DNA of 64,000 nt from a virus. Below, piece by piece: positions 49,271 to 59,987 of this stretch. Both the position numbers and the translations under genes were made by a program. Location of the stretch: the IMG/VR virus record IMGVR_UViG_3300032086_003519, positions 1 through 64,000 of that record; one strand, given 5' to 3'. How positions within the stretch are numbered: position 1 is the first letter of the stretch; each line of letters begins with the position of its first letter. The notes beneath the pieces were generated by a model. The model searched no databases. It was not told where the DNA came from and was given only the letters and a program-made list of their open reading frames with translations.

Positions 49271-50422
49271 TTAATACAGATTGTTTATAACTTGACAAAC
49301 TTTTTCTATATCTTTTATATCCATGTCGTGGTGATTTGGCACATACATTCCGTTAGAATCTACTAAACAAGAGTTTTTATGACCAACTTTGCCAAATAAT
49401 TTTTGCCAAACTGGTTGCATACCAATGCTCCCAGCTATGAGAGGTCTACATTCAATATTGTTGTCATTAAGAGATTCTGCAAGCTTTTCTCTATCTCTAA
49501 CAATTATTGGATAGCCCATGTTTGATACGAGATTTTGGCACGAAGAAGGCTGTGGTTTCCAGATTGTGTCTTTGATTAGTTCGTCATAAATCAAGAAATT
49601 TTCATGACGTTTACTTGCAATATTATCTATCTTATCGACCTGTCTCAGGCCAATAAATGCTTGCAAATCTGTAGACCTTAAGTTAAATCCAGCAAAGTAA
49701 AATTTATAAAGAGCATTGAACTCGTCTACATTATACTGGTTTCTATACTTTTTCTTAGAATCTTCAGATATGTCTCTATCCCACCCATGACTACGAATCA
49801 TGCGAAGAATTTCTGCAAGATCATCATCATCGGTGCAAATCATACCGCCTTCGATGGTAGATATGTGATGTCCAAAATAAAATGAGAACGAACTCATGTC
49901 GCCAAAAGTTCCTAGCTTCTTGCCATGCACTTCTGATCCAAGACTTTCGCAAGTGTCTTCTATTAGCAGAACAGAGTATTTGTCACAAAGGGCTTTGACT
50001 TCTTGTATATTGCAGTCGAACCCTAGCACATGTACCAATATAAGGGCGGCAGGATTTTCAGTTTGAAATATATTCTCAAGATGACCGAGATCCAGTCCTA
50101 GATTTTGCATATTGCAGTCACAAAGTATAGGCTGAAGCCCGAACTGTATGATAGGAAATACGGTAGTAGACCAAGAGACTTGAGGAGCTACCACTTTATT
50201 GTTTTTCATTTTCCCCGATTGAGCTAAGGCAGAAAAAGCTAGTAGATTTGCCGAAGATCCAGAGTTACAAAAGACTGAGTGCTTCACTCCTAGTTTTGCA
50301 GAGAATTTCTCTTCAAACTCTACAGTTAGCTTGTTCTTCGTTAAGATAGGTTTTGTTTTCAACCACTCAATCAAAGAGTCAATATCTGCATCATCTATGA
50401 TTTCTGCACAAAGTTTTATCAT
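49271..50422 (-). CDS. DegT/DnrJ/EryC1/StrS-family PLP enzyme, ColD-type (GDP-4-keto-6-deoxymannose 3-dehydratase-like)
   Basis: Motifs NSGSSANL, EDTCES, SFYFGHHISTIEGG (His at the usual Schiff-base Lys), RSHGW.R, GFNLR, RPLIAG. Confidence 0.8.
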   Translation of the reverse strand: MIKLCAEIIDDADIDSLIEWLKTKPILTKNKLTVEFEEKFSAKLGVKHSVFCNSGSSANLLAFSALAQSGKMKNNKVVAPQVSWSTTVFPIIQFGLQPILCDCNMQNLGLDLGHLENIFQTENPAALILVHVLGFDCNIQEVKALCDKYSVLLIEDTCESLGSEVHGKKLGTFGDMSSFSFYFGHHISTIEGGMICTDDDDLAEILRMIRSHGWDRDISEDSKKKYRNQYNVDEFNALYKFYFAGFNLRSTDLQAFIGLRQVDKIDNIASKRHENFLIYDELIKDTIWKPQPSSCQNLVSNMGYPIIVRDREKLAESLNDNNIECRPLIAGSIGMQPVWQKLFGKVGHKNSCLVDSNGMYVPNHHDMDIKDIEKVCQVINNLY

Positions 50423-51351
50423 GCTTCTACAATTCCTTTAAGCTGTTCCAGCAAAAATTCTTGATTTACACATTCCGGTATTTTATTGTCAGGGAAACAG
50501 GGTAATGTTTGTATTTTTTTATATTCAATAGTATTATAACAAAGCTCAAGAACTTTTTCATGTAGATGTTCTAAATTTTCAAAGTTTCTGACATGTAGAA
50601 ATGCTTCTTCGTTGAACTCTTCTGCAACATCTTTGCATCCCCAATAAATAGGTATTGATCCTACATACTTGGGATGAATTATTTTTTCTGTGATCCAGCC
50701 ATCTGATTCTCCGTTATCAAAACAAAGATTAAACTTGAAATCAGATAGATATTCCAGCTTGTGTTTTTCATCTCCGCCAATCGACGGCATATTAGTAAAT
50801 GCTCTCCCTCTACTCTCTACAAGAAGTCCATTATCAATACCAAAGTTTATAAATTTAGGATACGCTTCTTTTCTGTAGCCCATATCATTGTTAGTTAATA
50901 TAGAACAGAATTTACTCTTTTGTGAAACATTAACTTGATTCGTTAACTTTTTTGCTGACAAGAGAAACGCTTGATTTCTGCCCTCTACATAGCTTTCTTG
51001 CTGATCGCCAAACCAGTTTACATACATAGCCCACAGAGGTATTCTGACATTTCTATCATCTTCAAATTTACAAGACGAAATAGAAAAGTCACACTTGCTA
51101 TAGTCGGGATCTCCTGTTCTGTCTATGGATTCTACTAACCAATGAACTATCTTGGAGCTGGTAAATCCTGATGTAAACCTTTCGGGAGGTGGAGCTTGAT
51201 GACTAGCCGGTGAAACCTGACAGATTACAATGTCTGGATTACTATCTGTTATTGTAACGTCGTACTCTTTTCTAAGAGTGTTTGTTATAATGTTGTCGTA
51301 CTCAAAGAAGCCGCCCCACATATTATAAAATTTTAAAGATATGTTTTTCAT
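50419..51351 (-). CDS. GT10 alpha-1,3-fucosyltransferase-like glycosyltransferase
   Basis: KFC, then K...L..FKFNLCFDN....GWITEKI....IPIYWG. Confidence 0.8.
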   Translation of the reverse strand: MKNISLKFYNMWGGFFEYDNIITNTLRKEYDVTITDSNPDIVICQVSPASHQAPPPERFTSGFTSSKIVHWLVESIDRTGDPDYSKCDFSISSCKFEDDRNVRIPLWAMYVNWFGDQQESYVEGRNQAFLLSAKKLTNQVNVSQKSKFCSILTNNDMGYRKEAYPKFINFGIDNGLLVESRGRAFTNMPSIGGDEKHKLEYLSDFKFNLCFDNGESDGWITEKIIHPKYVGSIPIYWGCKDVAEEFNEEAFLHVRNFENLEHLHEKVLELCYNTIEYKKIQTLPCFPDNKIPECVNQEFLLEQLKGIVEA

Positions 51352-51387
51352 TTGTACCTCATATAAATAGTCTAATACATTATAGAG

Positions 51388-51723
51388 CTACTTATCGAGT
51401 TGTACATCTATTTTCTTTAAATTTTCTGAGAATTGTTTTAGCGTGCTTACTGTTGTTTCTCTGGCAACTCTTTCTGCGGTCTCAGCGGCATAAGCTTGGA
51501 CTTCTGTTGGGAGTTCATTAGAAAGCGCCTGAAGAAACGTCTCAAACTTCATGGCTGTATCAGTTTGTATTGTGTGACTATAAGAAGCACCTTCCTCTAA
51601 AATGTCTAATCTTTTGTCTAAATATCGGTTGTTATATTCAGCTCTAGCGCCTATAAAAATAACGGCAGCTAGAAAGATGCCTCTAAAAATACTTGACTGG
51701 TTCACCTTCATGTTCATTCTCAT
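51388..51723 (-). CDS. hypothetical membrane-anchored protein
   Basis: N-terminal hydrophobic segment followed by a coiled coil. Confidence 0.55.
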   Translation of the reverse strand: MRMNMKVNQSSIFRGIFLAAVIFIGARAEYNNRYLDKRLDILEEGASYSHTIQTDTAMKFETFLQALSNELPTEVQAYAAETAERVARETTVSTLKQFSENLKKIDVQLDK

Positions 51724-52393
51724 CTTCTTCTTTATTGAGTGTCATTAATATTTTGGACACGATACCACTACGAACAATATCGCTATAATCCAGTTTGCAA
51801 ACACCAACACCAGAAACTTCGGAAAGTTTATCCATACAAGTCTTAAGACCACCTTGATGTTTACCTAAGTCGGACTGTCTTAGATCTCCGTTTATCACAG
51901 CCTTAGAATCTTTTCCAATTCTAGTAATAAACATTTTGATTTGTTCAAACGTAGCGTTCTGCGCTTCGTCTAAGATCATAAAACAATTATGAAAGTTTCG
52001 CCCTCTCATATATTCCAGTGGGCATAACTCAATAATATCTCTACTCCTATAAGTTTCTACCGTATTCTTTGTGAGATATTGGTTCATCTCTTCTAGAATA
52101 GGTATTAAATAAGGATTAATTTTTTCTACTAATGTGCCGGGCAAGTGACCCAAACCACGACCCGACTCTACAACAGGTCGAGTAATAATAATTTTGTCTA
52201 CTTTCTTTTCGATCAAGTATTCACACGCCATTCCGACAGAGACGCTAGTCTTTCCCGACCCAGCAGGCCCAGAGCAGAAAGTAACATCAGACCTGTTTAT
52301 ACTCTGCATGTAAGTTTCTTGATTGCGTGTTTTAGGCCGTAATATTTTTCTTCTCTGTCTTGTTGTCTTTGGTTTTTTTGCTTGTCTTGCCAT
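51683..52393 (-). CDS. phoH: PhoH-family ATPase
   Basis: Motifs GPAGSGKT, TRP.V, LPG, YMRGRNF, ILDEAQN, GD..QSD, DIVR. Confidence 0.95.
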   Translation of the reverse strand: MARQAKKPKTTRQRRKILRPKTRNQETYMQSINRSDVTFCSGPAGSGKTSVSVGMACEYLIEKKVDKIIITRPVVESGRGLGHLPGTLVEKINPYLIPILEEMNQYLTKNTVETYRSRDIIELCPLEYMRGRNFHNCFMILDEAQNATFEQIKMFITRIGKDSKAVINGDLRQSDLGKHQGGLKTCMDKLSEVSGVGVCKLDYSDIVRSGIVSKILMTLNKEEDENEHEGEPVKYF

Positions 52394-52689
52394 TAATTAT
52401 TCTCTACTGTTATAGTTTTAATTGCTGAATCCTGACACATTGGACATATCGGCTGAGAGCCGGGCTTATGTATACCAAGTTGGTGATGGGTCATAAGGAT
52501 TGCTTGAATTATCTGTGATTCTCTAAGCCTTGAATGTAAGGGTAATTCTCTGAGTTCTTTTTCTATGGGAATTTTAAGTTCTATTGCTGGCTCCTTATTC
52601 ATTATATGTTTGAACATATAGAAAGAGCCCGCTAAATTCAGTAAAGATAGTGAAAAAAGTACATAAACTGCGTTCTTAAAAAATTTCAT
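52393..52689 (-). CDS. hypothetical membrane-anchored protein
   Basis: N-terminal TM; HH..H..CPMC potential metal site. Confidence 0.55.
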   Translation of the reverse strand: MKFFKNAVYVLFSLSLLNLAGSFYMFKHIMNKEPAIELKIPIEKELRELPLHSRLRESQIIQAILMTHHQLGIHKPGSQPICPMCQDSAIKTITVENN

Positions 52690-53900
52690 TAGAATAATTC
52701 TTTTATAATCTTACCAGAGTTGGCAATCTTCATAGGTCTGCCGTTATTACTGGTAAATGTGGTTGTTAGTGAAATGTCAAGAGCTTTGCATACTGAAGCC
52801 ATCACATCTTGAGAAGTGTAAGGTTCTGTATCAACGCGCGTGCCATCTGAATTAGTAGCACCGACAGCAATACCTCCATTCATTCCACCTCCACCAACGA
52901 CAACGCTCCAACTTCGTGCCCAATGGTCACGACCTGCGTTCTGGTTGATTCGAGGAGTTCTACTAAACTCTCCCATCCAAATAATTACTGTGTCTTGTAG
53001 AAGTTCTCTCTGTTCTAGATCTTCAAATAGCGCACTCATACCTTGATCTAACATAGGAAGTTTGTTATCTCTTAATGTAGCATGAATATTCTGATGATTG
53101 TCCCATCCGCCAAGATTAACCTCTATAAACGGCACACCAGCTTCTACTAGCCGTCTAGCCATCAGACAACCTTTACCAAAGTTGTTGTTGCCGTATCTTT
53201 CTTTTACATTTTCTGGTTCGCCTGCAACTTTCAAAGCATCCATCTGTGAGCTTGTCAGTACATTAAATGCTTCCTTTAGAACTGATTGATGTTCTTTTGC
53301 TAGTGAGCCTCGTCTTTGGTTTATAAAATTACTTTCAATTGCATCCAAAGCGTAAGCTCTCTGATAAAATCTCTGATCTACTTTTACATCTAGATTTCTA
53401 ATTCTACCATCGCTATTCACGCTAAATGGAGCATATTTAGAACCAAGAAAACCGGCGCCTATACTTCCTCCACCCACAGAAATAAACTTGGGTATAGAAA
53501 GATCTGGTCTTGGCGACTGATGTGAGATTACTGAACCATAACTAGGATGATCTATGCTTGGGTTCGGAACATATCCAGTATGCATATAATAGCGACCACG
53601 CATATGGTCAGCTTCACGAGTACTCATACTTCTAATAATAGCAGCGTTATGCATCTGTTTTGCCATGAGAGGCATATGTTCACATATTTGCACATCTCCA
53701 GAGGTATTGATGGGACGGAAAGGGCCTCCTGTAGGCGCTCCGGGTTTTAAATCCCAGATGTCCATAGTTGAAGGGCCACCGCCCATCCATAGAAGAATGG
53801 CGGACTTCCCTTTCTTTTTAAGTTCATCTTCGTTAGCTTTAACAGTTTCCGCTAATGATAGCGCACTAAAAACCGATGTTAGAAAGGTACGTCTTTGCAT
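52689..53900 (-). CDS. DUF1501-family protein with Tat signal (copy 1)
   Basis: MQRRTFL; WMGGGPSTMDIWDLKP; ARRLVEAGV; WDNH; GEFSRTP..GRDHW. Confidence 0.9.
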   Translation of the reverse strand: MQRRTFLTSVFSALSLAETVKANEDELKKKGKSAILLWMGGGPSTMDIWDLKPGAPTGGPFRPINTSGDVQICEHMPLMAKQMHNAAIIRSMSTREADHMRGRYYMHTGYVPNPSIDHPSYGSVISHQSPRPDLSIPKFISVGGGSIGAGFLGSKYAPFSVNSDGRIRNLDVKVDQRFYQRAYALDAIESNFINQRRGSLAKEHQSVLKEAFNVLTSSQMDALKVAGEPENVKERYGNNNFGKGCLMARRLVEAGVPFIEVNLGGWDNHQNIHATLRDNKLPMLDQGMSALFEDLEQRELLQDTVIIWMGEFSRTPRINQNAGRDHWARSWSVVVGGGGMNGGIAVGATNSDGTRVDTEPYTSQDVMASVCKALDISLTTTFTSNNGRPMKIANSGKIIKELF

Positions 53901-53911
53901 GTCTTCACCTC

Positions 53912-54100
53912 TTAAATTATAGCATGTTGATCTGAATCAGAGTTTTGAAACTTAGCATAATTTCTATGCCAATCATATTGATGATCTTGGTACGGTGTAG
54001 GCTCATCATTATTATCATTGTAGGCATAACCGAAATCTTGCTTGAGTGAAGCAGAGCTTCCGCTACCTATGCCCATTGTTAATAAGTCTCCCATAAACAT
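53912..54100 (-). CDS. small acidic hypothetical peptide (62 aa)
   Basis: RBS AAGGAA; fills the gap before DUF1501 copy 1. Confidence 0.45.
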   Translation of the reverse strand: MFMGDLLTMGIGSGSSASLKQDFGYAYNDNNDEPTPYQDHQYDWHRNYAKFQNSDSDQHAII

Positions 54101-54104
54101 AATA

Positions 54105-54137
54105 TTATTTCCTTGTTAAAGCTGGTAAATATTTCAT
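54105..54137 (-). CDS. putative 10-aa leader peptide MKYLPALTRK
   Basis: Strong RBS AAAGGAG 7 nt upstream of the ATG. Its 3' end contains the RBS of the next ORF. Confidence 0.4.
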   Translation of the reverse strand: MKYLPALTRK

Positions 54138-54154
54138 TTTTAACTCCTTTAGTA

Positions 54155-54238
54155 AAGCTTGAGCGCCCGATAAATTCCTTTTTAGCGAACGCCCAAACTG
54201 ATTCCGATGGCGCCTCTCGCCGTTGGGTCGAGATCGAA
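54155..54238 (-). ncRNA. candidate structured cis-regulatory RNA
   Basis: GC-rich intergenic stretch. It forms two hairpins on the minus strand, one of 13 bp with 4 G-U pairs, and allows a possible cccaa/uuggg pseudoknot. Confidence 0.4.
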
Positions 54239-54239
54239 A

Positions 54240-54434
54240 TTAACTAATGCATTTGGGGCATTTACATACCTCTGCCTTACAAATGCAGTTTGTTTCTGGA
54301 CACGGACACTCATCTACACAAATTTCACAAATTGTTGGTTGGTCGCTATTAAACATCTCCTTTATCTCCTCTTTGTTAATTAAGCATAACGCTGCAACTA
54401 TAATAATTGCTACTAGCGGAAGTTTGATCTTCAT
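54240..54434 (-). CDS. small secreted or membrane-anchored Cys-rich (metallothionein-like) protein
   Basis: Signal-like N-terminus; 9 Cys in the C-terminal stretch CEICVDECPCPETNCICKAEVCKCPKC; RBS GGGGGTGAT. Confidence 0.6.
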   Translation of the reverse strand: MKIKLPLVAIIIVAALCLINKEEIKEMFNSDQPTICEICVDECPCPETNCICKAEVCKCPKCIS

Positions 54435-54452
54435 ATGACGATCACCCCCTCT

Positions 54453-55751
54453 CTAAATAATAAGGTCTTGTCGAACTGTACCACCGTCCACAATTTCTAT
54501 AGGACGATCTCCCGGAGCCATAAGCTCCTTATCGGAAACGATTCCGATTCTATTGTATATTGTTGCTGCCCAATCTTCTACTGTCATTGGGTTATCTTCT
54601 GGTTCACTCGCTGTAGCATTAGAGCTACCATAAACCATTCCGTTTTTAATACCGCCTCCAGCCATAACTACACTGAAAACCTTTGGCCAGTGGTCACGAC
54701 CAGCGGTAGCATTAATCTTTGGTGTACGACCAAACTCGGAAGCCAAACAAACCAGCGTGGAGTCAAGCATACCTCTATCACTAAGATCTTCAATAAGGGC
54801 CGCAAGTCCTTGATCTAGTGCTGGCACTTGTCCACGAATACCATTTTCTATATTGTCGTGCATATCCCATCCACCATAGGTGAGTGTGACGAAGCGAGTT
54901 CCAGCTTCTACTAAACGGCGAGCTAATAACATGCGAGCGCCAGCAGTATTTCTGCCATACTTGTCTCGCATCGCATCGCTTTCTTTGTTAATATCAAAAG
55001 CATCTCTGGCTTTTTCACTGCTAATCAAACTATAAGCACGATCATAAAAGCTATCTACGGCATCCAGAGAGTCTGACTTTTCTTTGGTAGCAAAGTAATC
55101 GTTGACTGCACTAAGCATTTTTCTTCTTGTTCCAAACCTATTATCATTCACACTGTCGGGCAGTCTGAGATCTCGAACCTGAAATCCATCACTAGCAGGG
55201 TCTGAACCTAAGCTGAAACCTGAGAATGAGCTACTTAAATATCCAGTACCTGCATATTCATTAGGTTGGTTTGGGATGCAGACGTATGGAGGAAGGTTTT
55301 GACGAGGCCCAAACTCATGTGCCACCACTGAACCCATTGATGGGTATTGAAGGGCTGGGCTAGGTCTATAGCCAGTAAACATATTATGTGTGCCTCGTTC
55401 ATGAGCTGCTTCTCCATGTGTCATACTGCGAATAATCGTCATCTTGTCTGTAACTTTGGACGTTTTGACCATCATCTCATTTAATCTAGTTCCGGGAACT
55501 ACGGTTTCAATGCTAGACATTGGCCCCCTGTATTCAAGAGGAGCAAAAGGTTTAGGATCAAATGTCTCTTGATGAGCTGAACCTCCCGGCAAATAGATAT
55601 AAATAACAGACTTTGCTGGCCCCTCAATGCTTTCATAAAACTTCTGGTCAGCTTGAGCTTGCTCCATGCGGAAATAATCCGATAGACTCAAACCCAAGCC
55701 ACCCAAAAAACCAACTTGCAGAAAAGATCTGCGATTACTTTTGCAATTCAT
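54453..55751 (-). CDS. DUF1501-family protein with Tat signal (copy 2)
   Basis: Start MNCKSNRRSFLQVG (RBS AAGGAA); AKSVIYIYLPGG..HQETFDPKP; WDMH; SEFGRTP..GRDHW. Confidence 0.9.
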   Translation of the reverse strand: MNCKSNRRSFLQVGFLGGLGLSLSDYFRMEQAQADQKFYESIEGPAKSVIYIYLPGGSAHQETFDPKPFAPLEYRGPMSSIETVVPGTRLNEMMVKTSKVTDKMTIIRSMTHGEAAHERGTHNMFTGYRPSPALQYPSMGSVVAHEFGPRQNLPPYVCIPNQPNEYAGTGYLSSSFSGFSLGSDPASDGFQVRDLRLPDSVNDNRFGTRRKMLSAVNDYFATKEKSDSLDAVDSFYDRAYSLISSEKARDAFDINKESDAMRDKYGRNTAGARMLLARRLVEAGTRFVTLTYGGWDMHDNIENGIRGQVPALDQGLAALIEDLSDRGMLDSTLVCLASEFGRTPKINATAGRDHWPKVFSVVMAGGGIKNGMVYGSSNATASEPEDNPMTVEDWAATIYNRIGIVSDKELMAPGDRPIEIVDGGTVRQDLII

Positions 55752-55761
55752 AAAATTTCCT

Positions 55762-56673
55762 TTACCACATTCTGCAAGACCAGTACCGAGCTTTCCATTT
55801 TGGGCCCGGAGCTGTATCACATTTGTGTCTTGCTCTAAAACTTCTTCTTCTTTCAGGGTTATCCCTTTTAATTTCCATATTAGGATCGCCAAATCTAACA
55901 ATAACAACTTTACCAGATCCATTCTTAGTATAAACTGCAAATTTCTTTGGCCCATCAGGGGTTCTAAAAGGCTTATTTAAAGTGACTTTTCTACCTTGAT
56001 ATTCTGCCGCTTTGGACTTTCTTGGATGTCCTTTTGGAAGAAGGTCATTATCCTGCGTGTATCCAGAATTAGAAGGTTTACCAGTTCTGAGTAATGTCAA
56101 AAAGGCATTTACTCTAGCCATAGCCCATCCATCTCTAGACATTTTTGGCGCATGACTTGTTGAGTAGGCTCCAGCCCCTCTACGATACACAGCTTTAAGC
56201 ATACCAAGAGTTGCTTTTGATCCTTTGCCTTTAGCATTATGCTCTTTCACTTTCTTAGACAGTCTTTCGGTGGTCTTTTTACTAAAAGTGATTTTACCAC
56301 TTGGGTTCTTTGCACTATCAGGCTTGTTTCTTTTTGAGCCTCTCTTCTGATCTTTTTTTGGTGCGGGAGTTCTACGGGGATCTCTAGGGCCCGGTTTGTC
56401 AGACTGAGCTTTCTTAAGCTCCTCTTGACTAGGACGACCTTCTTTTTCAGTGCGAGCAGGACGGTAGCTATCTCCTTCTCTCTGCTTTTTCCTCCTAATA
56501 TTTTCCCAAAGTCCGGGCTTAGCTTGTGAAACATCCCATTCTTCAGTATCTTCACCAAAATCTACATACTCAGCTTCAGCAGGAATATAAAAGTTTTCCT
56601 CTGTAAGATCTTCTGTATATCCAGTTTCATTTAAGTACTCATTAAATGCGCTTGCGTAATCTTCTTTTTTCAT
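55762..56673 (-). CDS. basic multi-module hypothetical phage protein
   Basis: Acidic N-terminus, then Lys/Arg-rich modules (PGLWENIRRK; VYRRGAGAYSTSH..WAMARVNAF; VRFGDPNM..RRRSFRARHKC..YWSC). Confidence 0.65.
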   Translation of the reverse strand: MKKEDYASAFNEYLNETGYTEDLTEENFYIPAEAEYVDFGEDTEEWDVSQAKPGLWENIRRKKQREGDSYRPARTEKEGRPSQEELKKAQSDKPGPRDPRRTPAPKKDQKRGSKRNKPDSAKNPSGKITFSKKTTERLSKKVKEHNAKGKGSKATLGMLKAVYRRGAGAYSTSHAPKMSRDGWAMARVNAFLTLLRTGKPSNSGYTQDNDLLPKGHPRKSKAAEYQGRKVTLNKPFRTPDGPKKFAVYTKNGSGKVVIVRFGDPNMEIKRDNPERRRSFRARHKCDTAPGPKWKARYWSCRMW

Positions 56674-57929
56674 TATAATATTACCTTTCCTTCACCTTCT
56701 AGCAGGTATCTTGGTCTGCCAGAGTTATCAACTCTCTGTGTGCCTTTATCTATTCCAAAATGATCAAATAGGGTTGCCTGTAAATCCAAAGGCCCAACAG
56801 GTCTTTCTGTAGGACTGTAAGATCTATCAGCCTCTCCGATGGTTCTTCCTGCTGCATACTCTCCACCGAACATAAACATCGGCGTGATTGATGGCCAGTG
56901 GTCACGACCGGCATTTGCATTAATTTTAGTTCTTCCAAATTCGCCAGTTACTACCAATAATACTTTATCACCTAAACCTCTATCGGACACATCCTGTATA
57001 AAGCCTGCAATAGCTTTATCGACAGGAGGCACTCTTGTCTTTAGGGCATTTGATACATTGCTATGCATGTCCCATCCGCCATAATGAAGCGTAACAAATC
57101 TTGTTCCGTATTCTACAAGACGACGAGCAAGAAGAAGTTGTTCACCAATATCTTTTGCTTTAGTTGACCCATAGAGAGCTTTTGTTTTTTCATTCTCTTT
57201 TTCTACTGCAAATGCGTCTTTTGCAGATCCTAATATTACATCGTATGCTTGCCCCTTGTAAAAGTCTACTGAGTTGGCGCTTCTGCTTGCGACTGCGGCG
57301 GCATCAAGTCCTTTGAGCAGGTCTTTTCTTGTAGAGAATCTATCAAGTTCGACTCTTGGGGTAAGGTTGTCTTTATTGGATGGATCGAAAGGTTTATATG
57401 CTCCACCGAGCCAAGCACCTTCATCACCTTCGATTTTACCTTGCTTAACATATGTTGGTACTCCATTTTCTTGGTTGTTAGCTCCATAACATGCAGATAC
57501 AATAGATCCGAATGAGGGGTACTTTGCCATAGAAGTGGTGGTTCTTTCTGGATTATACTGTCCGGTCATCATAAAATGAGTCCCTTGTCTATGAGAGGAA
57601 TCTCTGTGACTAAAGGAATTTACCACATTCATTTTGCCGGTATGTTTAGCTAGTTCTGTCCAGTCAGCACCTAAATTTATGTTCGTTTTAACATCATAAA
57701 TAGAACCGTTTACTGCTTGCCATTCGGTAGGCACAGTGTCTGTAGGAGCGTGAAATGTTTCAAACTGTGTTGGCCCTCCTCCAAGCCATAACCAAACAAC
57801 TGCCTTATCTTCATATGCATCAAAACCTTCTTGAGAAAACGCTTTGTCGGAAAGTCCGATAGAACTCATAGCTGCGCTGATGCCACCTACCCTTAAAAAG
57901 TTTCTTCGATTGAAAATAAAGTCTAACAT
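56673..57929 (-). CDS. DUF1501-family protein with Tat signal (copy 3)
   Basis: NRRNFLRVG; WLGGGPTQFETF; ARRLVEYG; WDMH; GEFGRT..GRDHW; RBS AAGGAG. Confidence 0.9.
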   Translation of the reverse strand: MLDFIFNRRNFLRVGGISAAMSSIGLSDKAFSQEGFDAYEDKAVVWLWLGGGPTQFETFHAPTDTVPTEWQAVNGSIYDVKTNINLGADWTELAKHTGKMNVVNSFSHRDSSHRQGTHFMMTGQYNPERTTTSMAKYPSFGSIVSACYGANNQENGVPTYVKQGKIEGDEGAWLGGAYKPFDPSNKDNLTPRVELDRFSTRKDLLKGLDAAAVASRSANSVDFYKGQAYDVILGSAKDAFAVEKENEKTKALYGSTKAKDIGEQLLLARRLVEYGTRFVTLHYGGWDMHSNVSNALKTRVPPVDKAIAGFIQDVSDRGLGDKVLLVVTGEFGRTKINANAGRDHWPSITPMFMFGGEYAAGRTIGEADRSYSPTERPVGPLDLQATLFDHFGIDKGTQRVDNSGRPRYLLEGEGKVIL

Positions 57930-57939
57930 TTTGGTCTCC

Positions 57940-58965
57940 TTAATAAGTTGTTGATTGTGTTTTTGTGACTATTGATCCATTTGTGTATGGCATGTAGTCA
58001 TTGTTGTCATTTGTATAAGAGAAAGACATTTCTACATTGCCTCCTCCTGTATCTCCACCCGAAAATCCAACGCCTGTACAATAATTCTTTGACCCCAAAT
58101 CAAAAATTATATTATCAAATTTCAGGACTATTTGCCGATCAGGAGTTGGAAATGTGCCCATAAAAATATTGTTGTTGTCTGATATTAGTATATCTTGTTG
58201 GACTGACTTTCTAGCTATTGCGCTGATTTCACAAGTAACTTCAACAGGCGTTTCTACGTACTTATATTTGTTTTGCTCGCTTGGATTGGTGCCCTGATTT
58301 GAACCTCTCCAAAAACCCGTATCGGCAAGTTCAGAGTAGCTGACCGAAAGACTAATTCCTATTGATTGTATAACCCTAACTTTTATATTATCATCTACTG
58401 TTAGTATGGCTGCGTCAACCTCAGTTGGAAATATACTGTTTTCTGTGTCGAAGTTTTGCTTTCTCATAAGAGTTCCAGACTCTCCAAGAGCCGGAATAGA
58501 ACCGGCAGACTGCTTCGTCAGGTTATTGGTAACGAGGGTAATACTTTCAGTAAATATACCATCAACAGAGAAGTTATACGAAATCTCTGTAACCAAACAA
58601 TATTCAAACTTTACTGAATCGACAGAACCACTTATGGTCGTATCATCACCATAAGTCAAACCAATTTCATATTCTTTTAATCCAGTCCAGCCAGCTATAC
58701 CTAGATTGGAATTTTTTAGAAGATAAGAGTCTTCATAATTGCCAGTTCCTATAGTATAGAAAGGCGTATCACCAGATCTTAGATGTCGTTCTATTGTTAT
58801 TGTCACTTCTGGCTTGTTGTATCTATCTCCAAAAGCCTGAGATCTTCCGGTATCAAGTATAGCTTCAGCGTCAGCGCTATAGTCAACGCCAACGCTTTGG
58901 ACGTTCTTTAAGTACGTGCCATCAACGAAGACCGCCTGACACGCATAAAAAACTCTGTTACCCAT
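57940..58965 (-). CDS. putative tail-tube-like structural protein
   Basis: N-terminal 'NRVFYACQAV..VQSVG', beta-rich, SYNFSVDG.FTESITL. Resembles tail tube proteins; not confirmed. Confidence 0.4.
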   Translation of the reverse strand: MGNRVFYACQAVFVDGTYLKNVQSVGVDYSADAEAILDTGRSQAFGDRYNKPEVTITIERHLRSGDTPFYTIGTGNYEDSYLLKNSNLGIAGWTGLKEYEIGLTYGDDTTISGSVDSVKFEYCLVTEISYNFSVDGIFTESITLVTNNLTKQSAGSIPALGESGTLMRKQNFDTENSIFPTEVDAAILTVDDNIKVRVIQSIGISLSVSYSELADTGFWRGSNQGTNPSEQNKYKYVETPVEVTCEISAIARKSVQQDILISDNNNIFMGTFPTPDRQIVLKFDNIIFDLGSKNYCTGVGFSGGDTGGGNVEMSFSYTNDNNDYMPYTNGSIVTKTQSTTY

Positions 58966-58979
58966 AGTAAGTACCTTTA

Positions 58980-59987
58980 TTAAAAGTCGTCAACTAAATT
59001 TCCTACAGAATACTCAGTGACTCTAGTCTCGAAAAAGTTCTTGCATTTTTCCAGATCAATGATCTCGCTCATCCAAGGAAATGGGTTCTGTGCATTTCCA
59101 TAAGGTGATGGTAAATTTAAATTGGTTAATCTTCTGTCAGCAATAAACTGAACATAATCAATAAACATATCTGCGTTTAATCCTAAGATACCATTTGGTA
59201 GAACATCTCTAGCATATGCTAACTCTAGCTCCATAGCTGTATCAATATGCTCGATGGTTTCTTTTTCCATTGCTTTTGTCCAGATCTTAGGATTGTCTTC
59301 TCTCAATCTATTAATAAGAGTTGTCCCAAAGTTGATGTGGATACTCTCATCACGAAGTGTGTATTGAATTTGCTCTCCAATTCCCGGCAGTTTGTTTTGC
59401 CTATTAAATGAAAGGAGCATAGCAAAGCCAGAGAAGAAGAAAATCCCTTCACAGATAACATAATAAGTAATAATATTACGAAGGAATTCCCTTTTCCCCT
59501 CCAGCGTATTTATATTAAAATCAGGGCGATTGATGTCAGTTGTAATGTTCATCAAGAACTCGTCTTTGGCCTTGATACTCGGAATTGAATTATATGCCTG
59601 ATAAACTTCATCAATATCTAAGTTCAAAGAGTCACAAACATAAACCACAGTAAGGTTGTGGAGGCTTTCCTCATATGCTTGACGCAGAATATATTGGCGA
59701 CATTCTGGATCTGTTACAAACTTGAATACACTGAGAAGCAAGTTATTGGCAACCAAAGATTCTGATCCAGCAAAGAACCCTAAGCATCTCTTCACAACTA
59801 ATCTTTCATCTTCGGATAGAGAGTTAGATTTCCACTGTTCAATGTCTTTTGCCATAGAGACCTCTGTAGGCATCCAATTGTTAGCGGCTCCGTCGATGAA
59901 TAAATCCCATGCCCATTTGTTTGTATGCGGCAAGATTTGATTCACAGTGGCTACTTTATCTGATATAATTTCTTTGCTTTTTTTCAT
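58980..59987 (-). CDS. nrdB: ribonucleotide reductase beta subunit with class Ic (R2c) signature
   Basis: Motifs NNWMPTEV, FFAGSESLV, EESLH, EGIFFFSGF, RDESIH, NFFE.RV.EY. Start at MKKSKE (TAATG overlap). Confidence 0.92.
   Translation of the reverse strand: MKKSKEIISDKVATVNQILPHTNKWAWDLFIDGAANNWMPTEVSMAKDIEQWKSNSLSEDERLVVKRCLGFFAGSESLVANNLLLSVFKFVTDPECRQYILRQAYEESLHNLTVVYVCDSLNLDIDEVYQAYNSIPSIKAKDEFLMNITTDINRPDFNINTLEGKREFLRNIITYYVICEGIFFFSGFAMLLSFNRQNKLPGIGEQIQYTLRDESIHINFGTTLINRLREDNPKIWTKAMEKETIEHIDTAMELELAYARDVLPNGILGLNADMFIDYVQFIADRRLTNLNLPSPYGNAQNPFPWMSEIIDLEKCKNFFETRVTEYSVGNLVDDF

Follow-up and report, generated by a model that had tools for sequence, protein, structure and literature searches.

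A DUF1501 gene cassette of probable host origin in a large marine phage

The window studied here is a stretch of 64,000 nucleotides and corresponds to the first 64 kb of the 87-kb virus record IMGVR_UViG_3300032086_003519 of IMG/VR, which is 57% complete according to CheckV. On its minus strand lies a cassette with three genes of the DUF1501 family, which we call A, B and C; related phages carry a fourth paralogue, D. We consider it very probable that these genes encode functional, exported auxiliary enzymes of host origin. Trees point to a cellular source, the genes reside in a phage genome and their sequences are under purifying selection. Judged from gene relationships, the most likely host would be a lineage of marine Pirellulaceae. 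The record further encodes rIIA (428 bits), rIIB, a DnaB-type helicase, a primase, a UvsX-like recombinase and a class I ribonucleotide reductase, and the carrier of the cassette is an uncultured large marine phage of lytic type. The three DUF1501 genes of the window are:

56673-57929, minus strand: DUF1501-C, 418 aa, leader RRNFL, PF07394 match of 228.6 bits, Shine-Dalgarno sequence AAGGAG
54453-55751, minus strand: DUF1501-B, 432 aa, leader RRSFL, PF07394 match of 380.8 bits
52689-53900, minus strand: DUF1501-A, 403 aa, leader RRTFL, PF07394 match of 344.5 bits

Phage ownership and probable host origin

The initial annotation, made from the nucleotide letters, had recognized three full-length DUF1501 reading frames in this region. 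The profile search agrees, as the matches to PF07394 (cut-off 27 bits) extend from profile positions 1-2 to 386-390 of 390. Mutual identity among A, B and C is 28-35%, which fits the earlier view of old and divergent paralogues rather than recent duplicates. B starts at the ATG at 55751, preceded by AAAGGA, and A and C likewise have good Shine-Dalgarno sites; a longer, 500-aa open reading frame (ORF) for B that reaches 55955 was rejected because it overlaps the upstream gene. All three proteins begin with [N/Q/S]RRxFL and a hydrophobic stretch, and the twin-arginine signals had been noted before. From this motif alone they are predicted to be exported by the twin-arginine translocation (Tat) system, whose component TatC the candidate hosts have and the phage records searched lack.

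Codon usage and substitution patterns agree with genes that belong to the phage. The GC content at third codon positions (GC3) is 0.29-0.33 in the phage DUF1501 genes, the AT-rich, phage-like usage proposed at the outset, versus 0.44-0.59 in the host orthologues. Phage and host orthologues share 68-74% identity at the nucleotide level and 79-86% at the protein level. Among the phage copies synonymous divergence (dS) is saturated, nonsynonymous divergence (dN) is 0.07-0.27 and dN/dS does not exceed about 0.1. The phage copies have been recoded to the composition of the phage under strong purifying selection.

The initial annotation had named a misassembled host contig as the finding that would overturn it. 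A host fragment joined to a phage contig by misassembly, or a host island or prophage, would explain why the proteins are so similar to those of Pirellulaceae and why the cassette occurs in some public metagenome-assembled genomes (MAGs). However, the same gene order is found in more than 40 viral contigs, among them genomes that are 94-100% complete, and phage genes both flank and interleave the cassette. One single DNA contig of 40.5 kb spans positions 50400-59000 with zero differences. Neither the phage-like third-codon GC nor the nucleotide identity to the host genes is what a host fragment would offer, and the MAG contigs with the cassette (L096 and L124) are phage-sized and carry a B gene identical to that of the viral loci L044 and L039. 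Misassembly and host contamination are excluded for practical purposes. Both contigs belong to the MAG 'SAR202 cluster bacterium OSU_TB57' (VFHP01000007.1, 152,655 b, and VFHP01000013.1, 64,029 b, respectively) and look like misbinned phage genomes. The same error probably accounts for P0199, a homologue of C that carries the name 'Candidatus Pacearchaeota archaeon'.

Sequencing runs of seven studies contain near-identical sequence, and no more than one of these studies is a possible source of the record. All three DUF1501 genes, as well as phoH and cys64, two further cassette genes described below, are matched by short contigs that stem from the RNA libraries of two studies. These contigs cover parts of all genes and are compatible with transcription while giving neither strand nor level, and bins left uncovered are uninformative.

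The origin of the paralogues was traced by comparison with five Pirellulaceae genomes, each of which holds 66-140 DUF1501 copies. Marine Pirellulaceae MAGs encode proteins with 85-86% identity to B, located on contigs as long as 2.2 Mb (L055), and other orthologues in Planctomycetia, for example in Gimesia and Fuerstiella, reach 70-78%. A has one orthologue per genome, at 80-81% identity in four genomes and 68% in the fifth, and the next paralogue reaches at most 42%. D has one host orthologue at 57-60%. Across the phylum, A-type genes occur in at least 6 and B-type genes in at least 17 of 121 genomes, both being lower bounds from 14-15 candidates scored per genome. A phylogeny with Planctomycetota paralogues and viral relatives upheld the planctomycete origin suggested by the initial annotation. 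In the A tree, 26 phage sequences form a clade (support 100) with the genes of four host genomes as its sister group (96), the fifth lying outside. The phage D sequences form a clade (100) whose sister group (93) is that of the host D-type genes. For B, 36 phage sequences and six marine Pirellulaceae share a clade (99) that is nested within cellular diversity, and a few phage lineages (L043, L035/36/41 and L048) branch deeper.

C has a different history. Its best match in the five Pirellulaceae genomes is at 37-38%, and its best 120 homologues, 57-88% identical, are all on contigs of at most 154 kb with none named as a planctomycete. These comparisons suggest that C is an old phage-only lineage. 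The nearest host relative (L150:8310-9584, contig 8 of G001, one of the host genomes) is a DUF1501 gene with no PSCyt/PSD1 neighbour; on one side it has genes for a GFO/IDH/MocA oxidoreductase and an FGGY sugar kinase, and on the other a gene for an S41 peptidase.

The host orthologues of the other paralogues stand next to genes of the PSCyt and PSD1 families. In one Pirellulaceae and one Gimesia genome the B orthologue is the only DUF1501 gene at its locus, followed by a PPC-domain protein (~846 aa), a PSCyt2/PSD1 gene and a PSCyt1/WD40 gene. The A locus of G001 (L148:6271-12135; contig 1, ~615-621 kb) reads PSCyt2/PSD1, DUF1501, an extracytoplasmic function (ECF) sigma factor and again PSCyt2/PSD1, and the D orthologue precedes a PSCyt1/PSCyt2/PSD1 gene. 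These loci are far apart, namely at 195 kb and 617 kb of contig 1 and on contig 2 of G001. Orthology and position together suggest that A, B and D were captured separately, in at least three events, from three different host loci; of the three copies in the phage studied here, at least A and B would have been copied separately from different host genes. In a microarray study of Rhodopirellula baltica, the ECF sigma factor RB10049, encoded beside the PSD1/PSC2 protein RB10051, was up-regulated in heat, cold and salt stress (PMC2754498); we do not claim orthology of that locus to the host A locus.

The adjoining PSCyt2 (PF07583)/PSD1 (PF07587) gene that makes the host arrangement a two-part module is missing from the phage cassette. 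A search for PSD1 gave 0 matches in this record and none in the records of four related phages, of which two are 94-100% complete, compared with 94 in the host control. Likewise, the absence of DUF1549 and DUF1553 genes, first remarked for the window, extends to the whole 87-kb record and the four related records. At each capture the gene of the enzyme with the Tat signal was kept and the large PSCyt2/PSD1 partner never.

The captured B protein has hardly changed. Here 213 of 431 columns have one residue that is shared by at least 90% of the 36 phage sequences and also by at least 90% of the 78 cellular ones, and the sole column that is fixed differently is residue 106, a Cys in cells and an Ile in phages (codon ~55434-55436), which sits in the strand leading to the conserved RS..H116 segment. 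A has six conservative fixed differences, a count that comes from 6 cellular orthologues, too few to be equated with the result for B. The near-unchanged sequence argues for a replacement of host enzymes, and not for a new function, in the case of A and B.

The cassette in related phages and its small companion genes

A scan of IMG/VR with B returned 46 viral loci, in which the recurrent gene order is C-B-cys64-(D-p127)-A-p98. In the closest relatives nrdAB lies upstream of the cassette and phoH downstream. Records that are 88-100% complete (139, 145 and 167 kb) bear three to four DUF1501 genes, and all four paralogues occur together in 14 loci. In the window the order along the minus strand is C, a gene for a 303-aa protein, B, cys64, two hairpins, a 10-codon ORF, a 62-aa ORF, A, p98 and phoH. 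Besides the DUF1501 genes, the features are:

55762-56673, minus strand: 303-aa basic protein between C and B, with weak similarity to DUF5824/DUF5754; phrog_7595
54240-54434, minus strand: cys64, 64 aa with 9 conserved Cys, predicted to be exported or membrane-anchored
~54141-54239, minus strand: GC-rich, RNA-like element with two hairpins, fold of -32.7 kcal/mol, z of -2.5
54105-54137, minus strand: remnant of p127 (MKYLPALTRK and stop), 10 codons, as seen in the alignment with the nearest relative, L004
53912-54100, minus strand: 62-aa ORF, common only to the window and L004
52393-52689, minus strand: p98, 98 aa, with a transmembrane helix and His/Cys residues, its start overlapping the stop of A
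51683-52393, minus strand: phoH, PF02562 match of 236 bits over profile positions 2-202 of 205, its start overlapping the stop of p98

The comparison with L004, whose flanking genes are 98-100% identical to those of the window, points to a loss. Between cys64 and the 62-aa ORF this relative has D, a 427-aa DUF1501 protein with the leader RRSFL and ~34% identity to B, followed by p127, a 127-aa Pro/Gln-rich protein that is predicted to be secreted and ends in FFFQFRW. Their counterpart in the window is ~100 nt of GC-rich sequence and the first codons of p127. The alignments suggest that the ancestral cassette had four paralogues and that this phage secondarily lost D and p127. The '10-aa upstream ORF' MKYLPALTRK is explained by this history, as it is the truncated start of p127.

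The GC-rich hairpins were also considered as a scar of the deletion, and this was rejected since the same element precedes an intact p127 elsewhere. Copies were found in L008:11695-11835 and L153:1860-2015 (81% identical), each between the stop of cys64 and the start of intact p127, and stem 2 shows one compensatory change from C-G to U-A among the copies. A search of Rfam with positions 51300-58100 gave no match at E <= 1. By its position and conservation it appears to be a leader of p127 conserved in phages that lack D.

Another close relative, L005, has three genes inserted between p127 and A (L005:13217-16110), which encode proteins of 218 aa (with a run of Gly), 272 aa and 465 aa. The 62-aa ORF of the window starts like the 218-aa protein (MGDLL). 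Given these inserts and the matching start, the spot upstream of A is a hot spot of insertion and deletion.

The initial annotation had expected a conserved linkage of three DUF1501 genes with phoH. Conservation of the cassette was borne out by the 46 loci, whereas the ancestral set would be four paralogues instead of three and phoH adjoins p98 in 10 of 20 loci, an adjacency that looks incidental; we therefore dropped phoH as a functional partner. Of the neighbours listed at that time, phoH, the peptide with nine Cys and the transmembrane peptide with His and Cys are all present, while the 'structured RNA' turned out to be, in all appearance, the leader of the lost p127.

A scan for promoters and terminators inside the cassette gave no convincing site, with a terminator count at the level of shuffled sequence. 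Because the genes overlap or abut and internal signals were not found, the cassette is probably co-transcribed from upstream, as part of a string that runs from nrdAB to phoH. The 303-aa basic protein is probably a passenger, and its position varies: it fills the gap between C and B here and follows A/p98 or B in other loci. Within its gene, pieces of 35-45 nt from 55816-56049 match many short unrelated contigs of one DNA metagenome at 90-95% identity and a depth of up to 266x, and this motif may be common to other abundant organisms or phages. Between nrdB and C lies a 341-aa ORF (57940-58965, minus strand), which is 34-96% identical among close relatives, missing from some, and without a family in Pfam, PHROGs or NCBIfam.

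The three small proteins of the cassette have no family in Pfam, PHROGs or NCBIfam either. After its signal or anchor, cys64 follows the pattern CxxC-x3-CPC-x4-CxC-x4-CxC-xx-C, with a lipoprotein-type LGC in some relatives. We counted it in 25 phage loci, whereas the cell loci that were fetched lack it; in 18 of 39 loci it directly follows B. In p98 a transmembrane helix precedes the invariant HH-x2-G-x-H-x7-C-x2-C (H68, H69, G72, H74, C82 and C85). This protein was found in 21 loci and stands directly after A in 21 of 28; its 77 homologues are all on contigs of at most 143 kb. Full-length p127 occurs in 26 phage loci and follows D in 10 of 15. Neither p98 nor p127 has a homologue in the five host genomes or in the fetched cell loci. 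The ESM Atlas held no usable look-alike of p98, and its AlphaFold2 model is of low confidence (pLDDT 69, pTM 0.32). The residue patterns suggest that cys64 and p98 are probably helpers that handle metals or redox/thiol chemistry.

These proteins raise the question whether the phage enzymes use cys64, p98 and p127 instead of PSCyt2/PSD1, as metal, redox or targeting subunits, and form a self-contained system. All three are conserved, predicted to be exported and confined to phages, p98 and p127 having no homologue in the five host genomes, and they are encoded directly after B, A and D, respectively, p98 even with its start overlapping the stop of A; C, moreover, has no host orthologue that is linked to a partner. 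Yet cys64 follows B in fewer than half of the loci, some loci have no small genes, and the window lost p127 while A, B and C stayed intact. The small proteins have no CxxCH haem motif and no detectable similarity to PSCyt or PSD1, and the model of p98 is of the poor quality just mentioned. We regard such a system, the main rival of the model favoured below, as rather unlikely. The more far-reaching version, a minimal self-sufficient DUF1501 system in which cys64 and p98, of 64-98 aa, and p127 take over the metal, redox or targeting role of partners of 600-1000 aa and C, with its altered residues, performs a reaction missing from the host, is a speculative idea to which we give still less credence.

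Fold and conserved residues

The family alignment comprises 123 sequences, and residue numbers refer to B. Its invariant columns are G55, H116, R278, D295, H297, R351, H353, G364 and G374, and the near-invariant ones include R6, R7, G56, D64, K66, W294, D312, E338, F339, G340, R341, G350 and D352. A, B, C and D have kept the motif set GG55-56, H116, R278, W294-D295-x-H297, D312, E338-F-G/S-R341 and G350-R-D-H353. That the motifs are intact, as claimed from the first reading of the window, thus applies far beyond it: the invariant residues and the RR motif are retained in 123 of 123 phage copies (26 A, 42 B, 39 C and 16 D). The C lineage departs at four near-invariant positions, namely D64->H, K66->N/T, P67->D/E and R107->N, in 39 of 39 phage C copies. 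As these lineage-wide changes adjoin the putative active site, C may differ from A and B in function.

An AlphaFold2 model of B built on the 123-sequence alignment reached a pLDDT of 92.3 and a pTM of 0.89. Foldseek matched it to sulfatases, LtaS-type enzymes and alkaline phosphatases at low TM-scores. With VIA-align, Z-scores of 15-19.9 over 240-280 aligned residues were obtained to NPPs, PafA, sulfatases, LtaS, EptA and iPGM. The structural matches of the B model were:

ENPP6: Z 19.9
PafA: Z 19.6
ENPP7: Z 19.6
Xac NPP: Z 19.5
ENPP4: Z 19.1
many sulfatases: Z 16-18
LtaS, EptA/MCR-1 and PbgA: Z 15-16.4

The alkaline-phosphatase/sulfatase-like fold assumed by the initial annotation is in agreement with this order, in which NPPs and PafA come first and sulfatases next. 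DUF1501 proteins share with NPP/ENPP enzymes, PafA and type I sulfatases the α/β core fold. In addition, when the family profile was compared to the PDB, it gave weak local matches to sulfatases (E 0.015-2) in which the GEFGR strand aligns with the GDHG strand that carries metal ligands; a PDB search with the B sequence by itself brought up no relative. On the other hand, sequence identity to these enzymes is just 8-15%, there is no Pfam match above threshold, and the conserved set H116, R278, WDxH, EFGR and GRDHW is distinct. PF00884 had no match in A, B or C at E <= 0.01, and PF01663 gave a sub-threshold local match with C alone (16.7 bits, cut-off 23). None of A, B, C and D shows the formylglycine motif C/S-x-P-x-R where it would be expected. 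The model thus suggests that DUF1501 proteins belong to the alkaline-phosphatase superfamily by fold and stand outside the sulfatase and NPP families. Conserved candidates for Asp/His/Glu metal ligands are E61/D64, D295, H297, E338, D352 and H353. In the superfamily the nucleophile, a Ser, Thr or formylglycine, is found at the N-terminal end of the helix behind the second core strand. Helix 116-125 of the B model, which follows strand 104-110, starts at the invariant His116 in place of a Ser, Thr or Cys.

The breadth of this superfamily leads to another possible role. The fold includes the envelope-modifying enzymes LtaS, EptA/MCR-1 and PbgA, so that the phage proteins could remove or transfer phospho- or sulfo-groups on host polymers, and thereby block superinfection, promote release or serve a phage glycan pathway. 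The top structural matches are, however, soluble phosphodiesterases and phosphatases followed by sulfatases, and the cassette has no conserved linkage to glycosylation genes. Moreover, in A and B the phage has near-unchanged copies of housekeeping-type host genes, for which replacement is the better explanation. Envelope remodelling of this kind is in our view distinctly improbable.

Furthermore, the proteins might not be enzymes any more and act as decoys that block host PSCyt2/PSD1 partners or substrates and shut an uptake or signalling route. It could be in favour of this idea that the partners were left behind and that a signalling role is conceivable for the host A-type module with its ECF sigma factor. 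But decoys would hardly need the putative catalytic and metal-binding residues that all 123 phage copies keep, nor a dN/dS as low as that between cellular orthologues, and we consider the proposal very improbable.

Proposed role and relation to known systems

The model we favour, in which the phage enzymes use the PSCyt2/PSD1 partners of the host, is one that we hold with modest confidence, somewhat inclined to accept it in full. The DUF1501 proteins would be made during infection, probably within the string of genes from nrdAB to phoH. They would fold and take up metal in the cytoplasm, and the Tat system of the host would export them in folded form to the periplasm. There they would replace or top up the DUF1501 subunits of the host and work together with its PSCyt2/PSD1 proteins. 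A periplasmic step of ester cleavage, which by fold would be of the phospho- or sulfo-ester type, could in this way be kept running while host expression fails. The proteins encoded after B and A, cys64 and p98, would probably assist in the handling of metals or redox chemistry.

Several observations speak against this model or parts of it. The docking with host PSCyt2/PSD1 is deduced from orthology and sequence constraint, and the host was assigned from trees of the very genes that were captured. The Ser, Thr or formylglycine nucleophile of the superfamily was not located in the DUF1501 proteins, and the contigs from RNA libraries may come from contaminating DNA. C, finally, has no close host counterpart. 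Because its nearest host relative (37-38%) is itself without a partner, at least one paralogue may work alone.

Classical host-derived auxiliary metabolic genes of phages are psbA, pstS and phoA of cyanophages. Like these, the DUF1501 cassette is derived from the host, recoded and under purifying selection with a near-unchanged protein, and it lies among genes for replication and nucleotide metabolism. It is unlike them in that the function of the family is unstudied, that several paralogues were captured independently, and that only one subunit of a host module was taken.

The closest cellular systems are the modules of DUF1501 with PSCyt1, PSCyt2 and PSD1 in Planctomycetes, Verrucomicrobia and Lentisphaerae (PMC3542564), and A, B and C are full PF07394 members with the same leader and motifs. 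In contrast to the modules, the phages have three to four paralogues in a row and small Cys/His-rich proteins instead of any PSCyt/PSD1 or PPC gene. Kamneva et al. described in 2012 a 'most complex' conserved cluster of DUF1501, a PPC protein, PSCyt-PSD1 and PSCyt1-WD40 (PMC3542564). B is orthologous to the DUF1501 member of this four-gene cluster, which is intact beside the host orthologue.

A literature search found no paper that describes DUF1501 genes as auxiliary genes of phages; one phage paper mentions a weak CDD match to DUF1501 in a 61-aa ORF of a Pseudomonas phage. Likewise, GenBank phage records held no full-length DUF1501 copy, neither PHROGs nor NCBIfam lists a family for A, B, C or D, and nothing is reported on the function of DUF1501 in searchable papers (PMC3542564; bioRxiv 10.1101/150078). 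New in the present analysis are the loss of D and p127, the identity of the hairpins and the '10-aa upstream ORF', the near-absence of fixed differences between phages and hosts in A and B, the conserved changes of C next to the putative active site, and the presence in RNA libraries and multiple studies.

In Planctomycetes and Verrucomicrobia, DUF1501 and the PSCyt/PSD1 partners rank with the largest families of genes. The repeated choice of particular paralogues by phages points to those members that matter most in the infected cell. At the same time, the short and partnerless phage genes offer expressible material for DUF1501 biochemistry and a compact, testable version of the family. If the phage system were self-sufficient after all, it would reveal the chemistry of an orphan family that has hundreds of copies per planctomycete genome, together with a new kind of periplasmic pathway built by a phage. 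In any case, the cassette would count as one of the earliest examples of auxiliary genes linked to phages that infect marine Planctomycetes, a group whose phage biology is nearly blank.

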